From positions 1 to 17,376 of IMG/VR virus record IMGVR_UViG_2703718846_000005: a stretch of 17,376 nt of DNA, one strand, 5' to 3'. Both the position numbers and the translations under genes were made by a program. Below, piece by piece: positions 133 to 14,574 of the stretch. Position 1 is the first letter of the stretch, and each line of letters starts with the position of its first letter. Under the pieces are notes generated by a model, which did not search any database, was not told the DNA's origin, and saw only the letters and a program-made list of their open reading frames with translations. The stretch comes from a virus. Lineage: Duplodnaviria; Heunggongvirae; Uroviricota; Caudoviricetes.

Positions 133-134
133 AT

Positions 135-311: not shown

Positions 312-324
312 TGGAGTTAATGTT

Positions 325-639: not shown

Positions 640-965
640 ATCAGATTAACTGTCAGGCACTGCGTGAGGCGGCAGAAGCAATAAAAACAGCAGCCACACC
701 ACAAAAATTGCTGGCATTTCGTATGAAAGCCACACCGCAGGTTGTGCTGGCTTTGCTGGATGAGCTGGAAGCCAGAGACAAACGCATTGCAGAGATGGAA
801 GTAAGGGATGTGCAGTTACCGACTTGCTATGAGCCTCGATATGGTCATCCGATAAATACTGATGAGCGATGCGTCATGATACCCAGTGAGCATGGACGCT
901 GGCTTTATCTGGCTGACTTAGAGCATGCACTACGAGTGGCAGGTATTCGCATCAAAGGAGAGTGA
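636..965 (+). CDS. Hypothetical phage protein (possibly Ead/Ea22-like)
   Basis: GTG start overlapping upstream stop (GTGA, translational coupling); N-terminal ..QALREAAEA.. helical region reminiscent of Ead/Ea22-like prophage proteins (from memory, unverified). Confidence 0.5.
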   Translation: MNQINCQALREAAEAIKTAATPQKLLAFRMKATPQVVLALLDELEARDKRIAEMEVRDVQLPTCYEPRYGHPINTDERCVMIPSEHGRWLYLADLEHALRVAGIRIKGE

Positions 966-966
966 C

Positions 967-1323
967 GTGGAAATAACCCCAGAAGATGAGTCCGGGAATA
1001 TTGTTTTATTTCCGGTAAAAGAGGATGACCCACGTAATCAGGTGAATTTTCTTTATGAGCCATCGGAAAGACCATACTGCCATCACGCTTCTGTCCGGGT
1101 TGACGAAAAAGAGCGTCAGGTCCGCTGTAAAATCTGCGGTGCAGTTGTGGAGCTGTTTGACTGGATGCTCTCAGTGGCGAAAAGAGAAACCAGACTGGCA
1201 GATGATGTAAAACAATTGCGTCAGGAGGAACGGGAAAGACGTAAAAATATAGAAAAGCTAATTCAGATTGAGCGTAATGTGAAAGCGCGGATACGCAGGG
1301 CGACAAAACTTAGCCCAGAATAA
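967..1323 (+). CDS. Hypothetical phage protein with Cys-x17-C-x2-C motif and basic coiled-coil C-terminus
   Basis: GTG 967 one nt after upstream TGA, AAAGGAG at 954-960; in frame with ORF 925..1323. Confidence 0.5.
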   Translation: MEITPEDESGNIVLFPVKEDDPRNQVNFLYEPSERPYCHHASVRVDEKERQVRCKICGAVVELFDWMLSVAKRETRLADDVKQLRQEERERRKNIEKLIQIERNVKARIRRATKLSPE

Positions 1324-1413
1324 TCAACATTATTATTGAAAATATAATCCTTAACCGGAGGGATTTCTGCACCCTCAGAACATCAGGAGGCCGCCCGAAA
1401 TGGCGGTAAGACA

Positions 1414-1587
1414 ATGCGAAAAATCAAAATAGTTATCGAAACGAGGATTGTTGGTAACGTGCGTGAAGATGTATTTGAAGTGGATGATGACGCGACTCCT
1501 GAGGAAATAGAAAACGAGGCAATTGATGTTTTCTTTAATCACTGCAATTACTCAATTTACGAAATAAAAGACGAAGTGGAAGAGTAA
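1414..1587 (+). CDS. Small acidic hypothetical protein (57 aa)
   Basis: ATG 1414 to TAA 1585-1587 (MRKIKIVIETRIVGNVREDVFEVDDD...); below the 60-aa cutoff of the ORF track; stop abuts next start (TAAATG). Confidence 0.4.
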   Translation: MRKIKIVIETRIVGNVREDVFEVDDDATPEEIENEAIDVFFNHCNYSIYEIKDEVEE

Positions 1588-1950
1588 ATGGCGACTTTGA
1601 CCAAAGAAGAACGGTTTACCAAAGAGCAGTTAATAGCCCACGCAGAGGAGGCTATTGAATCACAGAGACTGTGCATACCAGGCACAATCGACCATGACCT
1701 CATTCGCGCATATAAGATGGATATTGCTGTTCTGGAAATTGCACTGCAATCGCTGGCAGCAGCGCCAGTTGGTAAATTTTATGAATACAAACCAGTGGGA
1801 TATCAGCGTCTGGTCGATGAGTTAACCATGCTGGTAAAGCAGTTAATCTGGCAACTGAGGAAAGCGAAGCCAGACTGCAAATTACCGGATAAGGCGATGA
1901 GTTATCTGGAGCGGAACGGACTGATAAGCGTGGAGGATATTTTACGATGA
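1588..1950 (+). CDS. Hypothetical phage protein (120 aa)
   Basis: ORF track; ATG directly after upstream stop; stop overlaps next ATG (ATGA). Confidence 0.55.
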
Positions 1951-2030
1951 CCTGGCCTGAAGCATTCACAACGGCAGGAATTGCAATGGCGGTGGCGCTG
2001 GTGGTGTATTCGATTTGCCGCTGGGGATAA
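1947..2030 (+). CDS. Small membrane peptide (27 aa), hypothetical
   Basis: ATGA overlap with upstream stop; hydrophobic [27 protein letters not shown]; followed by strong terminator. Confidence 0.3.
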
Positions 2031-2036
2031 CAAACA

Positions 2037-2066
2037 AAAACCCCGGATTGACGGTCCGGGGTTTTT
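2037..2066 (+). terminator. Rho-independent terminator closing the early small-ORF operon
   Basis: CCCCGGA-ttgacgg-TCCGGGG hairpin followed by TTTTT. Confidence 0.8.
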
Positions 2067-2289
2067 GAAGGAAACAAACAGAAACAACAATTGCCGTTAT
2101 CTGTTGCCACCAATGACAAGTAAACGTATCTCAGGCGAGCGCATTGCGCCGTTCTGACGCGGATACATTAGCCTGGGCAGAAGGTTCTGGAAATAAAAAA
2201 TAGCGTTTTCTTATCGGTGTCGGTAAGATTGTTGCGGGTGCTTGAGGCTGTCTGCCTCGGGCATGCCACTGTAAGGCAGACAGAGAAAA

Positions 2290-2356
2290 GCCCCAGTTAA
2301 CATTACGCGTCCTGCAAGACGCTTAACATTAATCTGAGGCTCAATCTATGAACGGC
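2290..2356 (-). ncRNA. sok: Sok-like antisense RNA (type I antitoxin) with its promoter
   Basis: Minus-strand promoter TTGCCT-17 nt-TAACCT (plus coords 2391-2386 and 2368-2363), matching my recollection of the R1 sok promoter TTGCGC-17-TATCCT; transcript would be antisense to the mok start region. Ends are approximate. Confidence 0.45.
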
Positions 2357-2560
2357 AAATCTAGGTTAGCCTCTTACGTGCCGAAAGGCAAGGAGAAGCA
2401 GGCTATGAAGCAGCAAAAGGCGATGTTAATCGCCCTGATCGTCATCTGTTTAACCGTCATTGTGACGGCACTGGTAACGAGGAAAGACCTCTGCGAGGTA
2501 CGAATCCGAACCGGCCAGACGGAGGTCGCTGTCTTCACAGCTTACGAACCTGAGGAGTAA
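2348..2560 (+). CDS. mok-like upstream reading frame, in frame with hok (70 codons)
   Basis: ATG 2348 opens a frame that contains the hok ATG 2405 and shares its stop; position matches mok of hok/sok loci. Confidence 0.4.
   Translation: MNGKSRLASYVPKGKEKQAMKQQKAMLIALIVICLTVIVTALVTRKDLCEVRIRTGQTEVAVFTAYEPEE
2405..2560 (+). CDS. hok: Hok/Gef-family type I toxin (51 aa)
   Basis: MKQQKAMLIALIVICLTVIVTALVTRKDLCEVRIRTGQTEVAVFTAYEPEE: single TM helix plus conserved C-terminal Hok motif; I recognise it as HokD/RelF-like; GGAGAAG SD upstream. Confidence 0.85.
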   Translation: MKQQKAMLIALIVICLTVIVTALVTRKDLCEVRIRTGQTEVAVFTAYEPEE

Positions 2561-2628
2561 GAGACCTGGCGGGGGAGAAATCCCTCGCCACCTCTGATGT
2601 GTCAGGCATCCTCAACGCACCCGCACTT

Positions 2629-2650
2629 AACCCGCTTCGGCGGGTTTTTC
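2629..2650 (+). terminator. Terminator at hok mRNA 3' end (copy 1 of 20-bp repeat)
   Basis: AACCCGC-ttcg-GCGGGTT hairpin followed by TTTT. Confidence 0.7.
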
Positions 2651-2717
2651 GTCGCATTATGAGGTTGTAATTTTAGCTACCATTAGACTATCCTAAGGAT
2701 CTCAAACAGATCTATTT

Positions 2718-2735
2718 TGCATCAAATTTGGTGCA
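2718..2735 (+). promoter_or_regulatory. Near-perfect 18-bp palindrome, candidate operator upstream of the Doc module
   Basis: TGCATCAAATTTGGTGCA (16/18 symmetric) about 40 bp upstream of ATG 2776; adjacent AGATCT-centred imperfect repeat. Confidence 0.4.
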
Positions 2736-2775
2736 TGGCTTTGCCAATAATCGGAAAACAAAAGGACTCATTAGT

Positions 2776-2955
2776 ATGAGCTGCCCACTCAAAAAACACA
2801 CGCGGTTGAGTATTCCGCCTCGCGATAAAAGCGTTGTGGCAGTCCCTCGCCCAGCGATTGATGAAAACTGCGCACATCGTGAACAAGTGAAAAATGCTTT
2901 TGATTTCGGTTTTTCTCGTTATGAGAAAGCCATGGAAGAACTTTCAAAAGTGTAA
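2776..2955 (+). CDS. Small protein (59 aa), candidate antitoxin partner of Doc
   Basis: ATG 2776 with AAGGA 10 nt upstream; stop 18 nt before doc start; position typical of an antitoxin, but sequence is not a recognisable Phd/YefM. Confidence 0.4.
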   Translation: MSCPLKKHTRLSIPPRDKSVVAVPRPAIDENCAHREQVKNAFDFGFSRYEKAMEELSKV

Positions 2956-2973
2956 TGATGGGTATTGTGCTCT

Positions 2974-3459
2974 ATGGCTGAGATTGTTGAAGGAGTGCAT
3001 TACCTTACGGTTGATGATCTTGTTGAAATCAATCGTTCCCTAATTGAATTACAGACGCCAGATGAGCCCGTTGGTGTTCTGAGTCCAGATAACTTAAGTT
3101 CTTCTCAGGCCCGTCCCAGCATGGTTCGATGGTATGAACAGACTAATGACATGTTTGTACTGGCATCGGTATTGATTGAAAGTCTGATTCAGAATCATCC
3201 GTTTGCTAATGCGAACAAACGAACAGCTATGATGGCTGGTTACGTCTTCTTGTTGTTGAATGGCTATGAGTTAACAGCACCAGGCGATGAAATCGTGGAA
3301 ATGGCAGAGGGACTGGCCTGCAAAACCTATACTCGAGAAGATCTCGAGAACTGGTTGTGTTATTGGTCTCGCGCGTATGACAGCCGGGAATTATGTAAAA
3401 CAGGCGCAACTATTGTTTTGTATGAAACTATCAAGCTTAAAATAGAACAGCAAAACTAA
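2974..3459 (+). CDS. doc: Doc (death-on-curing) family toxin, Fic fold
   Basis: Contains HPFANANKRTA, matching the Doc motif HxFx(D/N)(A/G)NKR; size about 160 aa; start could be TTG 2965 or ATG 2974. Confidence 0.8.
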   Translation: MAEIVEGVHYLTVDDLVEINRSLIELQTPDEPVGVLSPDNLSSSQARPSMVRWYEQTNDMFVLASVLIESLIQNHPFANANKRTAMMAGYVFLLLNGYELTAPGDEIVEMAEGLACKTYTREDLENWLCYWSRAYDSRELCKTGATIVLYETIKLKIEQQN

Positions 3460-3475
3460 AGGCGCTTCCAATGAA

Positions 3476-3500
3476 AACCCGCTTCGGCGGGTTTTGTTTT
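3476..3500 (+). terminator. Terminator after doc (copy 2 of 20-bp repeat)
   Basis: AAACCCGC-ttcg-GCGGGTTTTGTTTTTT; the 20 nt AACCCGCTTCGGCGGGTTTT are identical to 2629-2648. Confidence 0.7.
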
Positions 3501-3574
3501 TTCCGGGCATTCTGGTTTACAATCTGCACGCCAGCCTGAACAACTGGCACCTGCTGCGCCAGCAGAGAAAACAG

Positions 3575-3853
3575 ATGGCGCACAAGACCAAATTACACAA
3601 TTCTGATAATTCAGCCGCTTTTGCCAGCAGGCACGGGCGGCGTTCTCATGTATTCAAATCTGACTGGTACCAGCATCCCCCATGCACTGAAGAACAGGCC
3701 GAATGGCTGATTCAGTGTTACGGCAGGCGCGGATACGAGGTTAAGAAAGCCCTCAGCCTCGATTATCGTCACTGGATAATCTCTGTCAGGCTCCCTTATT
3801 CCGAACGCCCACCACACCCGTCCCGCACATTCCAGCAACGGATCTGGAGGTAA
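3575..3853 (+). CDS. Hypothetical protein (92 aa)
   Basis: ATG 3575 inside ORF 3494..3853; TACAAT -10-like element at 3515-3520; stop TAA overlaps the GGAGG SD of the next gene. Confidence 0.4.
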   Translation: MAHKTKLHNSDNSAAFASRHGRRSHVFKSDWYQHPPCTEEQAEWLIQCYGRRGYEVKKALSLDYRHWIISVRLPYSERPPHPSRTFQQRIWR

Positions 3854-3854
3854 C

Positions 3855-4904
3855 GTGCGGGTATTACTTCGACCTGTTCCGGTACCGGAACTCGGGCTGG
3901 TGGTCCTTAAGCCTGGTCGTGAATCCATGCAGGTATTTCATAACCCTCGAGTGCTGGTGGAGCCGGAACCGAAAAGCATGCGCGGTCTGCCGTCCGGAGT
4001 TGTTCCTGCTGTTCGCCAGCCGCTGGCGGAAGATAAATCATTACTGCCATTTTTCAGCGATGAGCGGGTGATTCGTGCTGCTGGCGGCGCTGGCGCACTG
4101 TCTGACTGGCTGTTGCGTCATGTCAAATCCTGCCAGTGGCCTCATGGTGACTATCATCACAGTGAAACCGTCATACATCGTTACGGTACCGGCGCAATGG
4201 TGTTGTGCTGGCACTGTGACAACCAGCTGCGTGACCAGACATCCGAATCACTCGGGCAGCTTGCTCAACAAAATCTGACAGCCTGGATGATTGACGTCAT
4301 ACGCCATGCAATGAATGGCACACAGGAGCGGGAATTATCGCTGGCTGAACTGTACTGCTGGGCTGCTGTAAATGATGTAGTGGATGCCATGACCGAAAAT
4401 ATGGCGCGTCGAATCCTGAAGCTTCCGGGTGAAAAAATCCACTCAGTATACCGCGAGAGTAACATCATACCGGGAGAACAGACAGCCACCAGCATACTGA
4501 AGCAGCGCACAAAAAATTTTGCGCCGTTGCCTCACGCCCACCAGCAACAGAACCCACCACAGGAAAAGACGGTTGTAAGTATCACAGTTGATCCGGAGTC
4601 ACCGGAATCATTCATGAAGCGGCCTAAACGTCGCCGCTGGGTGAATGAGAAATACACGCGCTGGGTAAAGACACAGCCGTGTACGTGTTGTGGTAAGCCA
4701 GCAGACGATCCCCATCACCTGATTGGTCACGGTCAGGGCGGAATGGGGACAAAAGCCCACGATATTTTTACGTTGCCGCTGTGTCGGGAACATCACAACG
4801 AACTTCATGCAGATCCGCAGGCGTTCGAAGAAAAGCATGGTTCTCAGGTTGATTTAATTTTTCGTTTTCTTGATCACGCCTTTGCAACTGGCGTACTCGG
4901 ATAA
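3855..4904 (+). CDS. DUF968-like prophage protein with C-terminal HNH-type Cys/His motif
   Basis: GTG 3855 with GGAGG SD; C-terminus CTCCGKPADDPHHLIGHGQGGMGTKAHDIFTLPLCREHHNELH; resembles Qin YdfU-type proteins (from memory). Confidence 0.65.
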   Translation: MRVLLRPVPVPELGLVVLKPGRESMQVFHNPRVLVEPEPKSMRGLPSGVVPAVRQPLAEDKSLLPFFSDERVIRAAGGAGALSDWLLRHVKSCQWPHGDYHHSETVIHRYGTGAMVLCWHCDNQLRDQTSESLGQLAQQNLTAWMIDVIRHAMNGTQERELSLAELYCWAAVNDVVDAMTENMARRILKLPGEKIHSVYRESNIIPGEQTATSILKQRTKNFAPLPHAHQQQNPPQEKTVVSITVDPESPESFMKRPKRRRWVNEKYTRWVKTQPCTCCGKPADDPHHLIGHGQGGMGTKAHDIFTLPLCREHHNELHADPQAFEEKHGSQVDLIFRFLDHAFATGVLG

Positions 4905-4916
4905 AAGAGGTTACTG

Positions 4917-5291
4917 ATGGGGATAGAATTTGTTTTGCCTTACCCGCCGACGGTAAACACCTACTGGCGACGCCGTGGCAGCACATATTTTATATCGGAA
5001 GCCGGTAAGCGTTATCGCCGTGATGTGGCACTTATAGTTCGCCAGCAGAGGCTGAAATTAAACCTGTCCGGAAGGCTGGCGATAACGGTTATTGCCGAGC
5101 CTCCGGATAAGCGCCGTCGTGATCTGGACAATATCCTGAAAGCGCCACTGGATGCACTGACACATGCGGGGTTGCTCATAGACGATGAGCAGTTTGATGA
5201 AATCAATATTGTGCGCGGTCAGCTCGTTCCTGGTGGGCGGCTGGGCGTGAAGATTTACGAAATAATGCATGACGGGCAGGTCCAAAAATGA
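4917..5291 (+). CDS. rusA: Holliday junction resolvase RusA
   Basis: ..RRRDLDNILKAPLDALTHAGLLIDDEQ.. matches the RusA catalytic region; AAGAGG SD; stop overlaps Q start (ATGA). Confidence 0.9.
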   Translation: MGIEFVLPYPPTVNTYWRRRGSTYFISEAGKRYRRDVALIVRQQRLKLNLSGRLAITVIAEPPDKRRRDLDNILKAPLDALTHAGLLIDDEQFDEINIVRGQLVPGGRLGVKIYEIMHDGQVQK

Positions 5292-6109
5292 AACTGGAAG
5301 ATTTACCGAAATACTATTCCCCAAAATCGCCAGGCCTGACTGATGTATCCGCCTCGACGTCAAAAGATGCACTGAGTATCACTGATGTGATGGCTGCGCA
5401 GGGGATGACACAGAACCGGGCTGAGATGGGATTTTCTGCGTTCCTGGGGAAAATGGGTATTAGTATGAATGACAGGGTGCGGGCAACAGAATTACTGACA
5501 GATTATGCATTAAGTCAGTGCGATCGTGTGGCGGCGTTAAGGAAACTTCCGGCAGAAATAAAACCGGCAGTGATGCGTATTATGGCTTCGTATGCTTTTG
5601 AGGATTATGCCCGCAGCGCAGCGAGTAAAAAGCAGTGCCCTTGTTGCCATGGGGAAAAATTTATTGAAAGCGAAGTTTTTACAAACAAGGTTCAGTATCC
5701 GGATGGTAAGCCGCCAGTATGGGCAAAGTGTACAAAAGGCGTGTATCCGTCTTACTGGGAAGAATGGAAAAAAATCCGGGAGGTGGTGAAAGTTTCCTGT
5801 CCTGAATGTAAAGGGAAGGGGGAGATCTCCACTGCCTGTAAAGACTGCCGTGGGCGTGGTGTTGCCATTCATCGTGAAGAGTCAGAAAAACGGGGTATGC
5901 CTGTTATCAGGGGCTGCCGGCGTTGTGGCGGTCGTGGCTATGAAAGACTGCCATCAACGGAGGCATTTAATGCCATATGCAAAGTGACGAGTGCTATCAC
6001 GCTTGATACATGGAAAAAATCAGTGAAACGCTTTTACGATACGTTGGTGGTTCGGTTTGACATTGAAGAGGCATGGGCGGAGCGGCAGTTAAAGATGGTA
6101 ACGCGATAG
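5288..6109 (+). CDS. Late-gene antiterminator Q (Phage_antitermQ-like) with four CxxCxGxG zinc-finger repeats
   Basis: N-terminus MKLEDLPKYYSPKSP typical of Q antiterminators of E. coli prophages; sits immediately upstream of the late promoter. Confidence 0.8.
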   Translation: MKLEDLPKYYSPKSPGLTDVSASTSKDALSITDVMAAQGMTQNRAEMGFSAFLGKMGISMNDRVRATELLTDYALSQCDRVAALRKLPAEIKPAVMRIMASYAFEDYARSAASKKQCPCCHGEKFIESEVFTNKVQYPDGKPPVWAKCTKGVYPSYWEEWKKIREVVKVSCPECKGKGEISTACKDCRGRGVAIHREESEKRGMPVIRGCRRCGGRGYERLPSTEAFNAICKVTSAITLDTWKKSVKRFYDTLVVRFDIEEAWAERQLKMVTR

Positions 6110-6112
6110 TGT

Positions 6113-6143
6113 TGTTGATTTTTCCCGAATCTGTGGTAAATTC
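6113..6143 (+). promoter_or_regulatory. pR'-like late promoter (extended -10), presumed qut region
   Basis: TTGATT (6116-6121), 16-nt spacer, TGgTAAATT extended -10 (6134-6143), immediately after Q stop; small hairpin CGCCC-taacgat-GGGCG at 6144-6160 just downstream. Confidence 0.4.
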
Positions 6144-6190
6144 GCCCTAACGATGGGCGTTTTGTGCCTGACGTTAGAAGAATTTTTACA

Positions 6191-6217
6191 ACCCGCCACC
6201 GAGCGGGTTTTTTATTG
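6191..6217 (+). terminator. tR'-like terminator of short late leader RNA
   Basis: CCCGC-caccgag-CGGG followed by TTTTTT, about 50 nt downstream of the predicted late start. Confidence 0.65.
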
Positions 6218-6336
6218 CCCGAAAAACGGTACAGAACATTAAACGCGCTGGTGGTTACGAATACCGGTCTTTCAGCTTGTATTTTTGTAAATCGATATAT
6301 ACTTATCTTGTGACCAGTAATGTCAGGGCAATTGAT

Positions 6337-7080
6337 ATGAATGAAGCCTGTTCTGTTGTTTTTGTTCATTCCCCGTTTGTTGTGCTCTTTGAAGGAAAAG
6401 AGCTCTCTCTTGAAAGTGGTAGTGCACTTCTTGTCAGGGGGGGAGCTGGATCGTTATTGCCCTTTTCGGAATGTTTTCGGCGAATAAGTCTCAGTGAATC
6501 GACAATTAGCCGTTACCTGTTGTGTGGAGACGAAAAACAGGATGTAGTTTTAGTCCGGCAAATACCACGATATCTTTGCGTGAGTTTTCCCAAGGCAGAA
6601 TTGATGGGCATCCTGATTGATTATCTTTGTGAGGAAAAGATTCATACGGACAATTTAGCGGAAATGCTTTCCTTTTCGTGTCTGGCGTTTTTCTCATCAG
6701 AGAAAATGTTTTCGTCGTTTCTGACCGCGTGTATTAGCAATATTAGTGACAGGCTTAGTGCATTGTTTCGTACGGACATTGCAGCAAACTGGACTCTGAG
6801 AGATGTGTCTTCGCGGTTATGTATCAGTGAAAGTTTGTTAAAAAAAAGACTGAAAGAAGAAGGCACCTGTTTCAGTGAGTTGTTGCTTACAGAGAGAATG
6901 AGAATGGCAGCAATGCTGTTGAATCAATCTCGTTGCGCCATCAACAGAATCGCTGCTCAGTGCGGCTATAATTTTACATCTTATTTTATCAGCGTATTCA
7001 GGAGTTATTTTGGTGTTACACCGGCAGGTTACAGGATGGCTGCATTCAATGAGATGAGTTTAAGTGTTACTCAAGAATAA
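6337..7080 (+). CDS. AraC/XylS-family transcriptional regulator (AppY/EnvY/GadX-like), AT-rich moron
   Basis: C-terminal dual HTH (..LLKKRLKEEGTCFSELLLTERMRMAAMLL..IAAQCGYNFTSYFISVFRSYFGVTPAGYR); N-terminus MNEACSVVFV resembles AppY-type regulators; visibly AT-richer than flanks. Confidence 0.85.
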   Translation: MNEACSVVFVHSPFVVLFEGKELSLESGSALLVRGGAGSLLPFSECFRRISLSESTISRYLLCGDEKQDVVLVRQIPRYLCVSFPKAELMGILIDYLCEEKIHTDNLAEMLSFSCLAFFSSEKMFSSFLTACISNISDRLSALFRTDIAANWTLRDVSSRLCISESLLKKRLKEEGTCFSELLLTERMRMAAMLLNQSRCAINRIAAQCGYNFTSYFISVFRSYFGVTPAGYRMAAFNEMSLSVTQE

Positions 7081-7102
7081 TTGAATTTTGCACTCATTGA
7101 AA

Positions 7103-7131
7103 AAGGCTCGCTCCGGCGGGCCTTTTTCATA
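7103..7131 (+). terminator. Terminator after the AraC-family gene
   Basis: GGCTCGC-tccg-GCGGGCC hairpin (one mismatch) followed by TTTTTC. Confidence 0.5.
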
Positions 7132-7264
7132 TCTGCGCCACGCCCGGCGCACATCAAAAAACCACAGAGCCTTTCAGGGGGGAGCTTACGGGATGGTCAG
7201 TGTGACTTTCTCTGTGGGCTGCTCATCCCGGGGCGAGGCTCACCCACTAAAAGGAAAAGTCACG

Positions 7265-7690
7265 ATGTTTGGTATTTTCAAAAAGAAAACCCGTAAGGCT
7301 ATTACTGAAGTGAAGAAAATGGAGAACCGCGACGCAGTGGAGGCGACCGTCTGGGGCGCGTATTCCATTGCATACGCTGACGACACCTGTGACGCGAAAG
7401 AAATTGCGGTACTGGAGAAAACCATTGCAGCACTTCCTGCCTTTGCGCCGTTCTCCGGTGAGATTGCACAAATGAGTGCAAATATCCGCGCCCGTTATGA
7501 AGCATCACCGCGTTCTGCCAATGCTGAAGCTCTTCGTCAGCTGGCTGATGTTGCAGGTACTGATGATGCAGTTAATGTGCTGTGCCTGTGTCTCGATATT
7601 GCTGACCAGGACGGTATTGGTCCGGATGAAGAAGCACAGCTCAAGAAAATTGCGCAGGCGCTGCAGTTGCCACTGGAGCAGTATCTGTGA
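7265..7690 (+). CDS. TerB-like (tellurite-resistance TerB family) protein
   Basis: ATG 7265 with AAAGGA SD; two TerB-like helical repeats (AYSIAYADDTCDAKEIAVLEKTI and VLCLCLDIADQDGIGPDEEAQLKKIAQAL) resembling TerB as I remember it. Confidence 0.65.
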   Translation: MFGIFKKKTRKAITEVKKMENRDAVEATVWGAYSIAYADDTCDAKEIAVLEKTIAALPAFAPFSGEIAQMSANIRARYEASPRSANAEALRQLADVAGTDDAVNVLCLCLDIADQDGIGPDEEAQLKKIAQALQLPLEQYL

Positions 7691-7845
7691 AAACTGCGCG
7701 CCTTGTGCTGGCTGCCATCCTGTTGTTTCTGGTAGTGGCGGTTGATTTCACCGGGCGCCTGATGTCGGTGCTGGCTGATGGCGTGCTGGTGGTGATGGTA
7801 GTGGTCGTGCTCCGGCCTTTATTCCGGAACAAAAACAACAGCTGA
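7687..7845 (+). CDS. Small membrane peptide (52 aa) translationally coupled to the TerB-like gene
   Basis: GTG overlaps TerB-like stop (GTGA); product VKTARLVLAAILLFLVVAVDFTGRLMSVLADGVLVVMVVVVLRPLFRNKNNS is predicted TM; terminator follows. Confidence 0.4.
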   Translation: MKTARLVLAAILLFLVVAVDFTGRLMSVLADGVLVVMVVVVLRPLFRNKNNS

Positions 7846-7852
7846 TTATTTG

Positions 7853-7882
7853 AGCGGGCATTGAAAGCCCGCTGCATTTTTA
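7853..7882 (+). terminator. Terminator of the TerB-like unit, overlapping the stop of the convergent minus-strand gene
   Basis: AGCGGGC-attgaa-GCCCGCT hairpin followed by TTTTTA; the minus-strand side lacks a U-run. Confidence 0.55.
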
Positions 7883-8560
7883 TTGCTGCTGTTCCTTAAT
7901 GCGTTCCGGTAGCACAAATGCCACTTCAAGGAACAGGCGGAGAAACGCCACAAACTCTTTTGCCTGTTCACTACTGGCCTCGAGTTCGTGCACAGCCTCA
8001 TTGCCTTCCATACGGATTCGGTGAGCCCAGTTTCTCATTGATTCCGTCAGTATGCCGTCCTGCCGTGCCAGTTCAATGCGTGACAGCAGATTGCCTTTTT
8101 CGTACCCCAGGGCACGGAGGGCAACCTCGAGGACGCTACGGCAGCCAACAATGATACGCGGGGCGGTTCTGCCGGACCGAACATCCTCCTGCAACTCAGT
8201 GAAGACTGCGCGAATTTTTTCGGGATAGTGGGGGGAGTCATCGGGCAGCCTGAGTTCAGGATAGATTTTGATGCTTCCCTCAAGTGGAGCATTCAGCACC
8301 CAGGCTTTGTTGTTGATGGCTTTTTTCATGTCCACCAGTTCACTGACTGAACATTCGAATGCGATCATTAATGGGTTGTTACATTCTGTGCAAAAGTCTG
8401 TTGAGTATGCTTTTGCTGATGTTATTTCAGAGGTGCGCGGCTGTTGCACGTAAAGCTTGTTTTCTGTAGCCGGGCGCCTGCTGTGGTACTGGGTGACCTC
8501 ATTCAGAGAAATATGAACCTGATGAAGGCAGTACGGGCATCTAATTTTCAGGGAGTACAT
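7880..8560 (-). CDS. Zn-ribbon plus DUF4145-domain protein (226 aa), candidate defence/abortive-infection-type protein
   Basis: N-terminal CPYC...CTEC zinc ribbon; C-terminus ..RSVLEVALRALG..LLSRIELARQDGILTESMRNWAHRIRMEGNEAVHE..AKEFVAFLRLFLEVAF matches the DUF4145 pattern from memory; start at minus ATG 8560-8558 with AAGAGG SD. Confidence 0.65.
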   Translation of the reverse strand: MYSLKIRCPYCLHQVHISLNEVTQYHSRRPATENKLYVQQPRTSEITSAKAYSTDFCTECNNPLMIAFECSVSELVDMKKAINNKAWVLNAPLEGSIKIYPELRLPDDSPHYPEKIRAVFTELQEDVRSGRTAPRIIVGCRSVLEVALRALGYEKGNLLSRIELARQDGILTESMRNWAHRIRMEGNEAVHELEASSEQAKEFVAFLRLFLEVAFVLPERIKEQQQ

Positions 8561-8767
8561 ATGACCTCTTCGACAGAAGTGATAACTGAATTTGAAAATT
8601 GCATAGCAGATTCTGCCATTGATTCTGTAGCAGCGATAGAACGAAGGTTTGCTGCTGCTCAGACCCGGTATGGTCATGATGCAGCCGTCAAGGGGCTGGC
8701 AATGGCGTTTGTTATTGCGGAGAACCGCCGTCGCTTTATTGAAGCGCAAATGACACTAAAGCAATAA
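8561..8767 (+). CDS. Hypothetical small helical protein (68 aa)
   Basis: ATG 8561 with GGGAG SD 5 nt upstream; tandem terminators follow; start codon abuts the divergent DUF4145 gene start (CATATG). Confidence 0.45.
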   Translation: MTSSTEVITEFENCIADSAIDSVAAIERRFAAAQTRYGHDAAVKGLAMAFVIAENRRRFIEAQMTLKQ

Positions 8768-8780
8768 ATAGCACCACACA

Positions 8781-8841
8781 AAAGGCATCTGTGGGTGCCT
8801 TTGACTGGGTGTTTTTTTACGGGCCGACAGAGGCCCTTTTT
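8781..8841 (+). terminator. Tandem rho-independent terminators
   Basis: AAAGGCA-8 nt loop-TGCCTTT then U-run; GGGCC-gacaga-GGCCC then TTTTTT. Confidence 0.6.
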
Positions 8842-8860
8842 TATTTACAGGAGAAAAAGT

Positions 8861-9250
8861 ATGTCTGAACCCTTATCCGGTTCCGGCACGGCTGCGGCGC
8901 TCGGCGGGGCGACGGTATTCGGGCTGTTTACCGGAACGGATTTCGGGATTGTGTTTGGTGCATTCGCAGGGGCGCTGTTTGTGGCCACGATACCACAGAA
9001 GATTTCTGTCTGGCGTGTGGCAGCGCATTTTCTGGTGTCGTTCATTGTTGGCGTGCTGGGGGCGGATGTGATGGCGTCTTACCTGGTTGAAAAACTGAAT
9101 CTCCACAGCACATCTCTCGACGCACTTTGCGCGGTACTGGTATCGGTGGTGTCGGTGAAGATTCTCTCATTCATCCACCAGCAGGATATCGCATCGCTGG
9201 TATCCGGGCTGTTCTCCCGTCTGCGGGGTGGAGGCGGTAATGTTAAGTAA
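8861..9250 (+). CDS. Putative holin (3 predicted TM segments, 129 aa)
   Basis: AGGAG SD before ATG 8861; three hydrophobic segments, charged C-terminus; first gene of lysis cluster. Confidence 0.6.
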   Translation: MSEPLSGSGTAAALGGATVFGLFTGTDFGIVFGAFAGALFVATIPQKISVWRVAAHFLVSFIVGVLGADVMASYLVEKLNLHSTSLDALCAVLVSVVSVKILSFIHQQDIASLVSGLFSRLRGGGGNVK

Positions 9251-9515
9251 CCTTCCCGGATTACTGAATGTGGTGTTAAGCACGGTTATCGTGCTGACGC
9301 TCTTTTTTTATCGTCGCCGTGATTCCAGACATAAACCGCTGATGTCATGGCTGGCCTGGCTACTGATGCTGCTTTATGCCTTTGCACCACTCAGCTATCT
9401 GTGCGGTCGCCCGTTAGCGGCGAACTGGCTGGCGGTGGGGCTTAATCTGCTGTTCTGCGTGCTGGTGATACGTGCACGCGGGAACGTTTCAAAAATCCTT
9501 TCATTCCGGAGGTGA
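9240..9515 (+). CDS. Second holin/antiholin-like membrane protein (91 aa)
   Basis: ATG 9240 overlaps holin stop; three hydrophobic segments; basic C-terminus. Confidence 0.5.
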   Translation: MLSNLPGLLNVVLSTVIVLTLFFYRRRDSRHKPLMSWLAWLLMLLYAFAPLSYLCGRPLAANWLAVGLNLLFCVLVIRARGNVSKILSFRR

Positions 9516-9517
9516 GC

Positions 9518-9895
9518 ATGTCGGGTAAATTCAGATTCAGTCGTCGCAGTGAAAAAAATCTGGAGGGCGTCAAACCACAGCTGGTTGCTGTTGTTCGCCG
9601 TGCGCTGGAGCTGACGGAGGTTGATTTCGGTATTACGGAAGGTCTGCGCAGTAAGTATCGCCAGAAACAGCTGGTTGCAGAAGGTAAGAGCCAGACCATG
9701 AACAGCCGCCACCTGACCGGTGATGCTGTGGATGTTGTGGCTTATGTTGGCAGCCAGGTGTCATGGGACTGGCCTCTGTACGAGAAAATCGCACAGGCAT
9801 TTAAGCAAGCTGCCGCAGAGCTTGGAACTGCCATCGAATGGGGCGGTGACTGGCGGACGCTTAAAGACGGCCCACATTTTCAATTGAAGCGATAG
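9518..9895 (+). CDS. Endolysin, peptidase M15 family (L-alanyl-D-glutamate peptidase / VanY-like)
   Basis: SRHLTGDAVDV (SxHxxGxAxD zinc-binding motif) and ..WGGDWRTLKDGPHFQL; GGAGG SD before ATG 9518. Confidence 0.8.
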   Translation: MSGKFRFSRRSEKNLEGVKPQLVAVVRRALELTEVDFGITEGLRSKYRQKQLVAEGKSQTMNSRHLTGDAVDVVAYVGSQVSWDWPLYEKIAQAFKQAAAELGTAIEWGGDWRTLKDGPHFQLKR

Positions 9896-9912
9896 CTTGC
9901 AAAACATACAGG

Positions 9913-9934
9913 GCCGCCATGAGCGGCTTTTTTA
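9913..9934 (+). terminator. Terminator after endolysin
   Basis: GCCGC-catga-GCGGC followed by TTTTTT. Confidence 0.65.
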
Positions 9935-9965
9935 TTGCTCAAAAAACGAAAGAACGGAGGTACGT

Positions 9966-10247
9966 ATGTACGCACTGAAAAAAATCACGGTAACTAAAGA
10001 TGGTCGTCAGGTTGAAGAAGTGCATGTTCTGGGGAATATGTATCGTCTGGAGTTCTATCCGCGTGACACTCATCTTGCAGCAAAAATTGAGTATTGCCTG
10101 GGCGGGGATATTCCATGTATTCCGGTAGAAAAAGAGGATGAGGCTTACATTACCACGCTGACCGGAGACACGGTGCGTTGTATCTGTCGCGGTGACAGTA
10201 AAGCCAGGAATGAAATAGCCAGATGCCGCACCCAAGGCAGTAAATAA
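9966..10247 (+). CDS. Hypothetical Cys-containing protein (93 aa)
   Basis: ACGGAGG SD before ATG 9966; bounded by terminators on both sides. Confidence 0.5.
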   Translation: MYALKKITVTKDGRQVEEVHVLGNMYRLEFYPRDTHLAAKIEYCLGGDIPCIPVEKEDEAYITTLTGDTVRCICRGDSKARNEIARCRTQGSK

Positions 10248-10254
10248 AAAACAA

Positions 10255-10287
10255 AACCCCGGCTGCTGGAACAGTCCGGGGTTTTTA
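10255..10287 (+). terminator. Strong rho-independent terminator
   Basis: CCCCGG-13 nt loop-CCGGGG followed by TTTTT. Confidence 0.85.
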
Positions 10288-10377
10288 GTTTTCACGTCAA
10301 AGAGGAAATTGTGAGTAGTGAGTACGGAGAAAATCCTCGTGGGAAAGTATAAAAGATTCTTTTTGAGGTTGTCCATT

Positions 10378-10491
10378 ATGAAAGGTATTGAAGTGGAAAC
10401 TCCCGCGAGCCTTGATTTGACAAGGGCTGCGGCCTTTGCAATTCGCCTTGTGGCGGTCGCTGTTCTGATTTGGGCTGTGCGTTGGTGGTGA
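10378..10491 (+). CDS. Small TM peptide (37 aa)
   Basis: GAGG SD before ATG 10378; MKGIEVETPASLDLTRAAAFAIRLVAVAVLIWAVRWW; stop 1 nt before the lipoprotein start. Confidence 0.35.
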   Translation: MKGIEVETPASLDLTRAAAFAIRLVAVAVLIWAVRWW

Positions 10492-10492
10492 C

Positions 10493-10675
10493 ATGAGCCG
10501 AAAACACTGGACACACAGAATGCCTCGAACGGCGGTGAAATGGGCGCTGATAGCGATACTGGTGCCTTTTTTCCTGGTGGGATGTGTCAGCCTGGATAAA
10601 GCGCGCCAGCTTTTTGATACAGCTTCTCAGGTCTGTGAAATTGTCGACGGTGTTCGGCAGTGTCTGCAGAACTGA
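10493..10675 (+). CDS. Small predicted lipoprotein (60 aa)
   Basis: Basic n-region, hydrophobic core ALIAILVPFFLVG, lipobox LVGC; short mature part with 3 Cys; not proline-rich like lambda Rz1. Confidence 0.5.
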   Translation: MSRKHWTHRMPRTAVKWALIAILVPFFLVGCVSLDKARQLFDTASQVCEIVDGVRQCLQN

Positions 10676-10846
10676 TCGCCTGTAAGAGCAGAATATTTTG
10701 CTGAAAAATGAAGGATGCGCCGGCGTCCGGAAAGCATGAAATTCTGTGTTTGTGGCTACTCAATTAAATAAATTCTTTCTGTCGCCGCGAATACTCAAAT
10801 GTTGATCAGCGCCCGGTGCGGCGACGAGCTTCGATATCAGGAGACG

Positions 10847-11146
10847 ATGATGGAAAAAACAGAAAACAAACCGATTGTAATTGGTGCTGATGCTGCTCCG
10901 TTTAAGTTTGAGTTGTCTCAACTGGTGGAGATGCGCATCAGTGATGAATGGGGGGAGGTTAAAGCCCGCGCGCAGTATGCGGATGGCGAAAACCAGTACT
11001 TGATCCACTACAAAGCAGCTGATGGTCGCGCCACGACGGAGTGGTTTGGTGAGTCAATGCTGGAAGCAACGGAAGATGATCGCCATCCTGGCTGTCCGGT
11101 ATTTGCTGGTATGAAATTGCCGGAAGGTGCGGTTGTTACAGAGTAA
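10847..11146 (+). CDS. Hypothetical acidic protein (about 99 aa)
   Basis: AGGAGA SD (10838-10844) before ATG 10847/10850; in ORF 10799..11146. Confidence 0.5.
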   Translation: MMEKTENKPIVIGADAAPFKFELSQLVEMRISDEWGEVKARAQYADGENQYLIHYKAADGRATTEWFGESMLEATEDDRHPGCPVFAGMKLPEGAVVTE

Positions 11147-11351
11147 CAGACATTACAGCAGCCCTTCAGCGAGGGGCTGCGATAATGTGAGAAATAAAAA
11201 ACCGGTCACAGGGAACAGCCACACAGAACCGGCCGGCGAAGACCGCCAATATCACCCGAGCATCGGTACAACATACTTATGACAATAGACGGTATTGATG
11301 TAAATGCAATGTTATGCATCGACGAAAATAAAAAACCGGCAGGGGAAATCC

Positions 11352-11492
11352 ATGGAAGATTTGCCGGTGGCGAAAGAGGGCCATGTTTTTAACCTTAGTC
11401 GCAGAGTTACGGAGTGCAACTACGAATGCTGCCGGTATATGGCTGAATGGCGTTTCAATGATGTGCATCATGTTATGCGCAAACGAAAGTGA
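11352..11492 (+). CDS. Small Cys-rich ORF (46 aa), doubtful
   Basis: Internal ATG of ORF 11304..11492; weak SD. Confidence 0.2.
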   Translation: MEDLPVAKEGHVFNLSRRVTECNYECCRYMAEWRFNDVHHVMRKRK

Positions 11493-11504
11493 TAATCGCT
11501 CCCG

Positions 11505-11690
11505 TTTTCACGGGTCCTTTCCGGGAGTTGAAACACCGGGGGTCGTAGGACGCGCAAAAACGCGCTATTTATGAAAATTTTCAGGGAACCATGTCCGGTT
11601 TCACTACTGGTTAACTATATGAAAAATATAAAAACAAGCTTTTTGTGAACCGGACATGTACAAAAAACGAACATGCAAACCGGACATGAG
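11505..11690 (+). promoter_or_regulatory. cos site region (cosQ-like, cosN region, cosB with IHF-like A/T tract and three R-like repeats)
   Basis: TTTTCACGGGTCCTTTCCGG and GCTATTTATGAAAATTTTC match the lambda right/left end sequences as I remember them; 10-bp motif ACCGGACATG occurs at 11649-11658 and 11679-11688 and inverted at 11590-11599; lies directly upstream of the Nu1-like gene. Confidence 0.6.
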
Positions 11691-11732
11691 CGGTTTTCTG
11701 ATTGTGAGGTGAGAGTTTTTGCGAGGTGAGTC

Positions 11733-12242
11733 GTGGCTACGCAGACTGAAGTTGCCAGGCATTTGAGTCTGACCGATCGCCAGCTTCGCAGATTGCAGAA
11801 ATTGCCGGGTGCCCCGGTCTCGAATAAACGGGGGCATCATGACTTGGATGCCTGGCGTGATTTTTACATATCGTATCTGAGGAGAAGTAAAAATGATGTG
11901 TCTGATGGTGATAGCGAAGAAGACTATGAAGAAAAATTACTTATCGCCAGATGGAAATTGACTGAAGAACAGGCAATAGCACAGCAATTAAAAAATCAGG
12001 TAACTGAAGGCAGACTTATTGATTCAGGGTTCTGCGTTTTCGCCCTCAGCAAACTGGCGATGGCATTGTCCAGTACGCTTGATTCCATTCCTTTATCCAT
12101 GCAGCGACAGTTCCCGGATTTAACCCCGCGTCATATTGATTATCTGAAAACCCTTATCGCAAAGGGAGCGAATCAGTGTGCGCGGGCAGGGGATAAATTG
12201 CCGGAGTTACTCGATGAATATATCCGAACAACAGTTGAATAA
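11733..12242 (+). CDS. Terminase small subunit (lambda Nu1-like)
   Basis: GTG start with GAGGTGAG SD; ..FCVFALSKLAMALSSTLDSIPLSMQRQFPDLTPRHIDYLK.. closely parallels lambda gpNu1; overlaps the large-subunit start as in lambda. Confidence 0.9.
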   Translation: MATQTEVARHLSLTDRQLRRLQKLPGAPVSNKRGHHDLDAWRDFYISYLRRSKNDVSDGDSEEDYEEKLLIARWKLTEEQAIAQQLKNQVTEGRLIDSGFCVFALSKLAMALSSTLDSIPLSMQRQFPDLTPRHIDYLKTLIAKGANQCARAGDKLPELLDEYIRTTVE

Positions 12243-14574
12243 TATGATGATCGCCGTCACAACCGCATTACAGCCACTAATAAGGGCATTGCCGGTCACG
12301 CCGGTTGAATGGGCTGATCAAAATTATTATCTGCCTAAAGAATCGTCATACGGTGAAGGAGAGTGGAAAACCCTGCCGTTTCAGGTCGCCATTATGAACA
12401 GCATGGGGCACGACAGGATCCGCACTGTTAATCTGATTAAATCGGCGCGTGTGGGTTACACCAAAATGCTGCTGGGCGTGGTCGGGTATTTTATTGAGCA
12501 TAAATCCCGTAACAGCCTGCTCTTCCAGCCGACAGATTCCGCAGCTGAAGATTTTATGAAAGCGCATGTGGAAGCAACGCTCCGGGATGTCCCCAGCCTT
12601 AAAGCGTTATCGCCATGGCTGGGCAGAAAACATCGGGACAACACACTCACCCTGAAGCGTTTTTCCTCCGGCGTGGGGTTCTGGTGCCTGGGGGGGGCCG
12701 CTGCTAAAAACTACCGTGAAAAATCTGTGGATGTGGTCTGCTATGACGAACTCTCCTCGTTTGAACCGGATGTGGAAAAAGAAGGCTCGCCGACGCTGCT
12801 TGGCGATAAACGTATCGAAGGCTCGGTATGGCCTAAATCCATACGCGGCTCAACGCCAAAAATTAAAGGCTCCTGCCAGATTGAGAAAGCGGCGAATGAA
12901 TCTGCGCATTTCATGCGGTTTTATGTCCCTTGCCCTCATTGCGGGGAGGCCCAGTATCTGAAGTTTGGCGATGATGCGACGCCGTTTGGCCTGAAATGGG
13001 AGAAGGGTAAACCCGAAACGGTGTATTACCTGTGTGAACATAATGGCTGTGTGATCCGCCAGTCGGAACTTGACCAGACCGACGGATGCTGGATTTGTGA
13101 CAATACCGGGATGTGGACGCGTGACGGCCTGACATTTTACAGTGCCGGTGATGAGGAAATCCCGCCACCGCGCTCAATTTCGTACCACATCTGGACGGCA
13201 TACAGCCCGTTCACCACCTGGGTACAGATTGTTTATGACTGGCTCGATGCACTGAAGGATCCGAATGGCGTCAAGACGTTCATTAACACCACGCTCGGGG
13301 AGCCCTATGAAGAGGCCGTGGCAGAAAAACTGAGCTTTGAGTTGTTGCTGGAAAAAGTCTGCCACTATGGCGCGCAGGTTCCCCTGCGGGTGGTTTACCT
13401 GACCGCAGGGATAGACTCCCAGAAAGATCGCTATGAAATTTATGTTTGGGGCTGGGCTCCCGGCGAAGAAGCCTTTCTGATTGACAAGCAAATTATCATG
13501 GGGCGACCGGAGGACGAGGACACCCTTAAACGTGTTGATGCGGTGATCCGGAAAAAATACCGCCATGCTGACGGTACTGAAATTTCCATTTCCCGCGTCT
13601 GCTGGGATACCGGTGGTATCGACCAGGACATTGTGTATCAGCGATCCAGAAAACACGGCACTTTTTTTGTGCTTCCCATAAAAGGGGCATCGGTGTATGG
13701 CAAGCCGGTGATCACCATGCCCAAAAAGCGCAACCAGCGTGGTGTGTTTTTGTGTGAGGTGGGCTCCGATACCGTCAAGGAAATGCTGTACGCCCGTTTT
13801 GCCCTGCCGGTGGTTTCTGCCAGTGAAGCAGCTCCGTATACCTTCCGTTTTCCGGATAACCCGGACATTTTTTCGGAAGAAGAGGCGCGTCAAATCGTAG
13901 CGGAAGAACTGGTGGAAAAGGTGGTTAACGGCAGGGTGAAACTGCTGTGGGATAAAAAAGGGCGACGCAACGAAGCCCTCGACTGCCTGGTATATGCTTA
14001 TGCCGCCCTGCGCGTTTCGGTACAGCGGTGGCAACTGGACCTTGAAGCACTGGCGATGGCACGAAAAGATGAGCAGGATGAGGATGATATGAGCATGGAA
14101 GAGATCGCGGCTGCACTGAGTGGAGGATATTCCAGTGCCAGGGCATCCGCCAATGAGTCGTGGCGGTATTTTATGGGAAAACGAAAATTTGTGGCCAGTC
14201 GCCTGGCGTCACAGATGTTTGCCTGCTGGCTGGAGGAAGCCCTTATTCGTGGTGTGATCCGTCCGCCGAAATCCCGTTTCTCATTCTGGGAGGCTCGTTC
14301 CGGGTGGTGCCGTGCCGAGTGGATTGGTGCCGGTCGTATGGCGATTGATGGCCTTAAGGAAGTGCAGGAAGCGGTGATGCGCATTGAAGGCGGCCTGAGT
14401 ACATACGAGAAAGAGCTGGCCCTGATGGGGGATGACTATCAGGAGATTTTCCGCCAGCAGCTACGGGAAACTCAGGAGCGACAGGCTGCCGGTCTTCCGC
14501 GTCCGGTCTGGATAAAGGACGCGTTTCAACAGCAGATCCGACAGACAACGGGAGAAAAAGGCGATGCGCTGTAA
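12214..14574 (+). CDS. Terminase large subunit (lambda gpA-like) fused in frame to the C-terminal part of the portal protein (gpB-like)
   Basis: N-terminus MNISEQQLNN..VEWADQNYYLPKES..GDKRIEGSVWPKSIRGSTPK.. follows lambda gpA for about 637 aa; from about 14128 the frame continues as ..YSSARASANESWRYFMGKRKFVASR..MAIDGLKEVQEAVMRIEGGLSTYEKE.., which matches the lambda portal C-terminus (from memory). Confidence 0.85.
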   Translation: MNISEQQLNNMMIAVTTALQPLIRALPVTPVEWADQNYYLPKESSYGEGEWKTLPFQVAIMNSMGHDRIRTVNLIKSARVGYTKMLLGVVGYFIEHKSRNSLLFQPTDSAAEDFMKAHVEATLRDVPSLKALSPWLGRKHRDNTLTLKRFSSGVGFWCLGGAAAKNYREKSVDVVCYDELSSFEPDVEKEGSPTLLGDKRIEGSVWPKSIRGSTPKIKGSCQIEKAANESAHFMRFYVPCPHCGEAQYLKFGDDATPFGLKWEKGKPETVYYLCEHNGCVIRQSELDQTDGCWICDNTGMWTRDGLTFYSAGDEEIPPPRSISYHIWTAYSPFTTWVQIVYDWLDALKDPNGVKTFINTTLGEPYEEAVAEKLSFELLLEKVCHYGAQVPLRVVYLTAGIDSQKDRYEIYVWGWAPGEEAFLIDKQIIMGRPEDEDTLKRVDAVIRKKYRHADGTEISISRVCWDTGGIDQDIVYQRSRKHGTFFVLPIKGASVYGKPVITMPKKRNQRGVFLCEVGSDTVKEMLYARFALPVVSASEAAPYTFRFPDNPDIFSEEEARQIVAEELVEKVVNGRVKLLWDKKGRRNEALDCLVYAYAALRVSVQRWQLDLEALAMARKDEQDEDDMSMEEIAAALSGGYSSARASANESWRYFMGKRKFVASRLASQMFACWLEEALIRGVIRPPKSRFSFWEARSGWCRAEWIGAGRMAIDGLKEVQEAVMRIEGGLSTYEKELALMGDDYQEIFRQQLRETQERQAAGLPRPVWIKDAFQQQIRQTTGEKGDAL

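Follow-up and report, generated by a model that had tools for sequence, protein, structure and literature searches.

The gene at positions 6337-7080 of the stretch analyzed here, a 17,376-nt segment of Caudoviricetes DNA (IMG/VR record IMGVR_UViG_2703718846_000005, positions 1 to 17,376; hereafter "the window"), encodes a two-domain transcription factor of the AraC/XylS family. It is a "moron," that is, a self-contained cargo cassette, sitting in the Q-to-holin slot of lambdoid Escherichia coli prophages. The identity, architecture, and placement of this regulator are near-certain. The kind of regulator is already known; the individual member is new, and by sequence comparison it falls into an uncharacterised subfamily of the YdeO/GadW/PatE/Psr/AppY ("CSV") clade. 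Our reading as a whole is that the moron encodes a two-domain AraC activator of AT-rich host promoters, most likely those of the glutamate decarboxylase (GAD)/acid-fitness island, and we hold this to be probable rather than assured; by analogy with the relatives, the GAD circuit itself has roughly an even chance of being the target.

Protein Family and Fold

The open reading frame (ORF) is intact, running for 744 nt (247 aa) on the + strand from an ATG at 6337 to a TAA at 7078-7080, and a coding sequence (CDS) identical in extent has been called by the Prokaryotic Genome Annotation Pipeline (PGAP) in other E. coli genomes. A longer ORF opening with the TTG at 6277 is unlikely, since MNEACSV, the N-terminus of the 247-aa form, lines up with the M-x3-CSV start that every full-length relative has.

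Both Pfam AraC helix-turn-helix (HTH) models match aa 158-233 above their cut-offs (HTH_18 with 50.9 bits against 33.6, HTH_AraC with 50.0 bits against 26.6), which bears out the complete C-terminal dual HTH reported in a preliminary description of this DNA. The protein also matches phrog_1450 over aa 3-233 (E 1e-56). The best of the NCBIfam models is the YdeO equivalog NF007407, which covers aa 2-230 and scores 148.3 bits against a cut-off of 348. The GadX model NF007432 reaches 98.5 bits against a cut-off of 500 and covers aa 111-234 only; like it, the matches to HilD and to the remaining models are confined to the C-terminal half.

For direct comparison, reference proteins were taken from K-12 and Sakai. 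By BLASTP, the best pairwise match is ECs0287 (Sakai Sp1; presumed PatE), with 39% identity over 234 aa, and full-length matches are found to YdeO (36.5%), GadW (36%), and AppY (30%). PsrA (ECs1087) is 36.5% identical over 233 aa by tblastn, and 38% identical over 181 aa by BLASTP against its truncated annotated CDS. The BLASTP alignments with these five proteins cover aa 1-232. GadX and EnvY share 40% identity with the regulator over the C-terminal ~125-130 aa only (132 aa in the case of GadX), and YbcM shares 27%, again at the C-terminus only. The earlier label of an AppY/EnvY/GadX-type regulator is therefore roughly right, in that AppY is a full-length relative, but GadX and EnvY resemble the regulator in the DNA-binding half alone, and ECs0287, GadW, YdeO, and PsrA have to be added as full-length relatives. 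The N-terminal motif draws the same line: C5 is invariant in both of our alignments, and S6 and V7 are kept in six full-length relatives, not in GadX or EnvY.

Close orthology to a well-characterised regulator, which by the preliminary description would have refuted its observation, can be ruled out, since identity is at most 39% and every NCBIfam equivalog cut-off is missed. This includes YdeO (36.5% identity, and less than half of the required bit score) and GadX (a C-terminal match only, far below its cut-off).

The AlphaFold2 model, built on a 48-sequence alignment, has a mean predicted local distance difference test (pLDDT) score of 87.2. Foldseek matched it over its full length to Rns, CsvR, and ToxT (E ~3e-12, ~250 aligned columns), and to the GadX DNA-binding domain 3MKL with a template modeling (TM) score, normalised to the target, of 0.91-0.93 and a root-mean-square deviation of ~1 Å. 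A profile search of the PDB also hits Rns, CsvR, and ToxT, with an alignment that begins only at Rns residue ~95. In fatty-acid-responsive regulators the carboxylate is bound by H20 and R75 (Rns) or K31 and K230 (ToxT); in these proteins the fatty-acid contacts lie in the N-terminal region, and the sequence alignment with the regulator stops short of the N-terminal 70 residues. In the DNA-binding half, the recognition helices of both HTH motifs, SESLLKKRLKEEG in HTH1 and SYFISVFR in HTH2, hardly vary across the clade, and the AppY lysine K170, which is required for DNA binding by experiment (PMC10057817), aligns with the invariant K169 of the regulator.

Place Within the Clade

A search of 5.8 billion proteins found the exact sequence on at least 999 contigs and variants down to 76% identity, with the next matches only at 42%; in all sources the names given to the regulator are generic. 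Profile searching brought in further E. coli subfamilies with 33-55% mutual identity (PatE-like, Psr-like, YdeO-like, and others; groups P0012-P0061). In a neighbor-joining tree, which carries no support values, the regulator group forms its own deep branch beside the PatE-like and Psr-like groups. Among sources that name the organism, the subfamilies of the CSV clade come nearly all from E. coli.

Two of the neighboring names were considered and rejected. The regulator is not a PatE ortholog, as it shares 39% identity with ECs0287, whereas the PatE-like groups (P0012, P0034-39) share 52-55% with ECs0287 and lie on its branch. Nor is it a Psr regulator proper, being 36-38% identical to ECs1087 and on a separate branch; the Psr-like groups P0048-55 are 86-90% identical to PsrA and only 36-37% identical to the regulator.

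A Mobile Cassette in the Q-to-Holin Slot

When the window is compared with six E. coli prophage loci, local blastn delimits a block, made up of terminator, leader, gene, and terminator, that is shared at 88-98% identity by prophages with different flanks (Table 1). The left edge lies at 6187/6190 (6203 in one locus) in loci whose Q gene differs from that of the window. The right edge lies at 7156 in four of the six loci, at 7128/7158 in RM10740, and at 7177 in STEC308; in 08-00022 the similarity runs through. The Q-like genes upstream of the cassette belong to three PHROGs (phrog_127, as in the window; phrog_753/DUF1133; and phrog_79/QuuD-like), and there are three arrangements downstream: the holin follows directly, a DNA methyltransferase gene stands between, or, as in the window, a 1.6-kb insert does. 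We call the cassette a moron, as Hendrix used the term, on three grounds, namely its sporadic presence between conserved phage genes, its deviating composition, and its own terminator.

The same placement is seen in the 44 IMG/VR viral contigs on which the regulator was found. In 42 of these 44 loci the same strand carries a Q-like gene 244-1862 bp upstream, and a holin gene lies 114-1717 bp downstream in 34 of them, the remainder being mostly cut contigs. No conserved partner gene stands beside the regulator in the loci examined, so its targets should lie elsewhere in the genome.

Table 1. Coordinates of the regulator gene, its cassette, and the neighboring features in the window
Feature	Position	Strand	Details
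Q antiterminator gene	5288-6109	+	273 aa; Pfam PF03589 Antiterm, E 1e-49; phrog_127 "anti-termination protein Q-like," E 5.7e-111
Candidate lambda-type late promoter pR'	6115-6157	+	-35 TTGATT 6115-6120; -10 TAAATT 6137-6142, preceded by TGG
Sigma70-dependent pause element	6149-6157	+	AACGAT-GGG, same as in lambda
"Moron" cassette	6187-7156	+	~970 bp; terminator, leader, gene, terminator; local blastn against six E. coli prophage loci
tR'-like intrinsic terminator	6190-6215	+	7-bp GC stem and T6; terminator scan; -11.2 kcal/mol, z -3.15
Conserved leader block, candidate own promoter or 5' untranslated region	6275-6336	+	TTGTAT 6277-6282, TATACT 6298-6303
AraC/XylS-family regulator gene	6337-7080	+	N-terminal beta-rich regulatory domain, aa 1-~130; C-terminal dual HTH, aa ~136-235
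Strong intrinsic terminator at the end of the cassette	7098-7129	+	14-bp stem, A-run before and U-run after; -23.9 kcal/mol, z -5.49, 0/200 shuffles as good
Second, separate cargo insert, outside the regulator cassette	7157-8767	.	Absent in CEA224S, 1303, and A19, where shared sequence resumes at 8767/8768
TerB-like gene in the second insert	7265-7690	+	phrog_632 "tellurite resistance"
DUF3927/TciB-like gene in the second insert	7687-7845	+	52 aa; Pfam/PHROG
DUF4145 gene in the second insert	7880-8749	-	289 aa; weak PADLOC PD-T7-4 match, E 5.5e-4
Lysis genes at the downstream end of the Q-to-S slot	8795-9895	+	Two holins and M15 endolysin; Pfam Phage_holin_8, Phage_holin_3_7, Peptidase_M15_4

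The Q-to-holin slot is the one that holds stx in Shiga toxin (Stx) phages. RNA genes and tRNAs, as found in the Q-to-S slot of Stx phages and of Sp4, were not detected in that slot of the window: Rfam matched only sok, elsewhere, and ARAGORN found no tRNA.

Several observations on slot usage deserve to be recorded. The CSV clade uses both of the classical cargo slots, in that the regulator's subfamily and psrA occupy the Q-to-holin slot, and the relatives appY, ECs0287, and the homolog in mEp332 (3492-4244) are placed after the tail-fiber genes at the (pro)phage end. The prophage of CEA224S, which bears the regulator, is integrated next to yccA; this is the chromosomal site of Sakai Sp4, whose equivalent slot holds psrA. 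The nin region of the E. coli 08-00022 prophage, which has an identical copy of the regulator, also holds paa, an adhesin gene of the AcfC family, at 3864-4622 of the locus examined; the window is without paa.

Base Composition and Acquisition

The preliminary description had claimed that the gene is AT-richer than its surroundings, and the computed values agree. Its G+C content (GC) is 41.8%, compared with 49.8% for the whole window, 47-49% for the left flank, and ~52% for the right flank. Only 0.64% of all 744-bp segments of the window are as low in GC or lower, and the minimum for this length (40.9%, start 6268) overlaps the gene. Few genes in the window have a lower GC at synonymous third codon positions (GC3s, here 0.376), and synonymous codon usage differs from that of the pooled other genes with a chi2 of 81.5 (df 41), about double the value for the similar-sized genes Q (42) and DUF968 (50). 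One should keep in mind that the window has further short AT-rich stretches, for example 1201-1600 (40% GC) and the Fic gene (43%).

The gene family as a whole is low in GC (ydeO 39.5%, gadW 41.8%, gadX 41.0%, psrA 42.3%, ECs0287 35.2%, and appY 31.7%), and the low value therefore does not date the acquisition of this gene; its AT-richness fits a foreign, probably H-NS-targeted gene class. The separate acquisition that the preliminary description had proposed on account of composition is nonetheless supported, because of the cassette boundaries and not GC alone: the 6187/6190-7156 block is shared between prophages whose flanks differ.

Late Promoter, Terminator, and Leader

The regulator starts 228 bp downstream of the Q gene, whose ortholog in CEA224S was annotated by PGAP as "antitermination protein." The segment that follows Q resembles the late promoter pR' of lambda. 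Positions 6115-6157 of the window can be written as TTGATT-16 nt-TAAATT-6 nt-AACGATGGG, and lambda pR' as TTGACT-17 nt-TAAATT-6 nt-AACGATGGG. The two agree in the -10 hexamer, in the distance of 6 nt from there to AACGAT, and in the GGG; the 6-nt spacer itself reads CGCCCT in the window and TGACTC in lambda. Both sequences were read directly (lambda 44.55-44.60 kb) and their coordinates checked; a global MAFFT alignment put the promoter in the wrong place. A consensus sigma70 promoter scan of 5900-7400 returned 0 sites, but it also misses the lambda-like pR' (8/12 to consensus) and is thus too strict to decide for or against an own promoter of the cassette.

The tR'-like hairpin that comes next is also the left edge of the shared cassette, homology to the other prophages starting at 6187-6203. 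Together with the Q gene and the promoter with its pause element, it places the regulator directly behind a late promoter, as the preliminary description had it; by the lambda model, pR', the pause element, and tR' would behave here as they do in lambda. The 273-aa Q protein itself holds three DnaJ-type CXXCXGXG zinc-finger motifs (Pfam DnaJ_CXXCXGXG, 30.4 bits, just below the cut-off of 32.7), and despite these motifs its promoter has the lambda pR' -10 and pause element.

A 120-nt leader separates the tR'-like terminator from the ATG of the regulator, which is preceded at ~8 nt by a weak Shine-Dalgarno sequence (AGGG). In an alignment of seven loci, positions 6275-6336 are almost invariant, the divergent RM10740 allele included, and positions 6215-6274 are variable. 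Conservation in the divergent allele is higher over the 60 nt that precede the ATG than over either the coding region or the distal leader, which suggests a functional promoter or 5' untranslated region. The gene had been said to sit where it could be expressed by both Q-dependent and lysogenic transcription. Structurally, Q-dependent read-through is well supported; lysogenic transcription is presumed from the conserved leader and the cassette's own terminator.

Distribution, Alleles, and Selection

Of 5426 complete E. coli genomes, 65 carry the regulator, in every case on the chromosome; its flanks match more than 1700. The subfamily was not found among deposited phage genomes (best match 40%), and no relative was found among GTDB species-representative genomes. 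It thus seems to be restricted to accessory DNA of E. coli/Escherichia.

There are two main alleles. Copies with at least 99% identity to the window occur in 40 genomes, mostly from cattle, sheep, beef, dairy-farm, and Shiga toxin-producing E. coli (STEC) sources, and copies with ~91.7% identity occur in 23 genomes, mostly enterotoxigenic E. coli (ETEC) from pigs and O139 (O139:H1) strains, a skew in host and source that was judged by inspection, without statistics. Between the two, synonymous divergence (dS) is 0.23 and nonsynonymous divergence (dN) 0.064, giving a dN/dS of 0.27, which shows purifying selection between the alleles. A few copies are frameshifted, with 742-nt matches annotated as split or hypothetical proteins (H83, H96, and H97).

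Proposed Function and Its Alternatives

The preliminary description held that prophage-borne regulators of this family rewire host regulons, and for acid resistance and type III secretion this is confirmed by the literature (PMC10877973, PMC10057817). PatE activates gadE, gadBC, and hdeAB; PsrB activates gadE and hdeAB, binding the hdeA and gadE promoters; and PsrA and PsrB both induce GadE and YhiF, thereby repressing type III secretion by the enterocyte effacement locus (LEE) (PMC10877973). AppY is a direct activator of gadE and gadY (PMC10057817).

We therefore envisage the following sequence of events for the regulator, arguing from these relatives and from lambda. In the lysogen, there would be low-level transcription from the conserved leader, with the gene probably silenced by H-NS and induced by stress or in stationary phase, like its relatives. 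Upon induction of the prophage, Q-modified RNA polymerase from pR' would read through tR', and the regulator would be part of the first late message. The protein would then bind AT-rich promoters by means of recognition helices almost identical to those of its relatives, and activate host genes, most probably gadE, hdeAB, gadY, and the acid-fitness island. In hosts with the LEE, a secondary repression of type III secretion may follow, as by PatE, PsrA/B, and AppY. We name gadE, hdeAB, and gadY as the likeliest targets because the recognition helices are nearly the same and because PatE, PsrA/B, AppY, YdeO, and GadW converge in their biology (PMC10877973, PMC10057817, PMC4456613).

Several points weigh against this proposal and should be kept in view. 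The target regulon is extrapolated across 30-39% identity, and the N-terminal (signal) domain is where the protein diverges. Among solved full-length structures, the nearest in fold are Rns, CsvR, and ToxT, which control pili and toxins, not acid resistance. The consensus scan called no sigma70 site in the leader, where the best hexamers are poorly spaced (15 nt). The tree, as said, has no support values, and the equation of ECs0287 with PatE (Z0321, OI-8) was made from prophage position, with no direct confirmation in the literature.

Some of these points lead to the first alternative, namely the same type of protein in the same cassette with a different regulon of other host genes or horizontally acquired ones (adhesins or fimbriae, for instance, further prophage cargo, or metabolism that matters for colonizing the ruminant or pig gut), and possibly answering to a small ligand, for example a fatty acid. 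The deep branch, whose identity to other subfamilies never exceeds 42%, and the divergent N-terminal domain would suit it, as would the host skew of the alleles (cattle, sheep, and farm versus pig ETEC/O139) and the best full-length structural matches, which are pilus and virulence regulators that bind fatty acids. We nevertheless consider it unlikely, if a serious contender: the recognition helices hardly differ from those found in regulators of the GAD circuit, full-length identity is 36-39% to YdeO, GadW, PatE, and Psr compared with ~20% to Rns/ToxT, and every characterised member of the clade converges on gadE and hdeAB.

A bolder proposal combines several of these ideas. The protein would be a ligand-sensing regulator with an Rns/ToxT-like pocket and a distinct, host-adapted regulon for ruminant or pig colonization, expressed, owing to its place as first gene behind tR', in a Q-driven pulse in the induced subpopulation, and would thus couple prophage induction to a host-wide switch. 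We regard this as improbable.

Still less credence should be given to a regulator directed at the phage itself, which as the first late gene would tune lysis, other late genes, or adjacent cargo during lytic growth. It is true that the gene is co-oriented within the late operon right after tR', and that in many prophages it immediately precedes the holins. It is, however, dispensable, as closely related prophages lack it and few genomes carry it, though Q and lysis modules are widespread. Its pairing with three PHROG families of Q and with several lysis cassettes argues that there is no conserved cis target, and it brings its own terminator; appY, ECs0287, and the mEp332 homolog, moreover, lie at the tail-fiber end.

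Least probable of all is a functionless remnant decaying in defective prophages, which could explain the few frameshifted or split copies, the truncated cluster members that occur, and the lack of a strong promoter in the consensus scan, but not a 247-aa frame that is intact in nearly all copies, an identical protein on so many contigs, the low dN/dS at an appreciable dS, the conserved leader, or a high-confidence model with a complete HTH. A component of a defense system was ruled out, the regulator being without a PADLOC match.

Other Features of the Window

Outside the slot, the window carries a hok/sok type I toxin-antitoxin system at 2236-2560, where Rfam sok scores 110 bits (gathering threshold 59) at 2236-2410 and overlaps a 70-aa Hok-like ORF at 2348-2560; hokD is annotated by PGAP at the equivalent place in related prophages. 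The nin region contains a Fic/DOC-family gene at 2965-3459 (Pfam PF02661, E 6.9e-12; 43% GC, GC3s 0.38; no PADLOC match), which may be another cargo gene.

Significance and Comparison with Known Systems

Prophage AraC regulators, for example PatE, PsrA/B, and AppY, are a documented route by which phages reprogram acid resistance, biofilm formation, motility, and type III secretion in E. coli, traits that bear on stomach passage and on persistence in livestock. The present regulator adds an uncharacterised and fairly common subfamily. Since E. coli holds several mutually distant subfamilies without names, the members of the clade that have been studied are a small sample. The clean architecture of the cassette also suits the question of how such cargo is expressed, whether by Q read-through from the late promoter or out of its own leader. 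The finding would sharpen present understanding without overturning it.

PatE, as represented by ECs0287, is the closest of the characterised proteins. It is likewise prophage-borne, 247 aa long, and AT-rich, with the same two domains and the N-terminal CSV motif. ECs0287, however, lies at the tail-fiber/attachment-site end of its prophage, whereas the regulator occupies the Q-to-holin slot, and the two fall on separate branches.

PsrA and PsrB of enterohemorrhagic E. coli O157:H7 (OI-50/OI-57) belong to the same clade and are carried by lambdoid prophages, as is the regulator in all contexts examined. The position of psrA (ECs1087), between Q (ECs1084) and the lysis genes of Sp4, is that of the regulator. 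They differ in being 90% identical to each other, and no effector or Pch association was seen in the regulator's window.

YdeO and GadW show full-length homology (36%), near-identical HTH recognition helices, and similarly low GC. They are, however, chromosomal core genes, whereas the regulator is prophage-borne and accessory (1.2% of complete genomes), and lacks the EvgAS/safA context of ydeO. AppY, from the cryptic prophage DLP12 of K-12, is a prophage AraC regulator of the same clade whose lysine K170 corresponds to K169; identity is only 30%, and appY is found beyond the tail-fiber genes, at the far end of DLP12.

Rns, CsvR, and ToxT have the same overall fold, an N-terminal beta-rich domain followed by a dual HTH, but identity is ~20%, the domains are oriented differently in the model (TM ~0.42), and the regulons comprise pili and toxins. 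Finally, stx and other cargo between Q-pR'-tR' and S in lambdoid phages share with the regulator the slot, the Q-driven logic, an own terminator, and an atypical composition; they place a toxin, porin, or tRNA where the window has a transcription factor.

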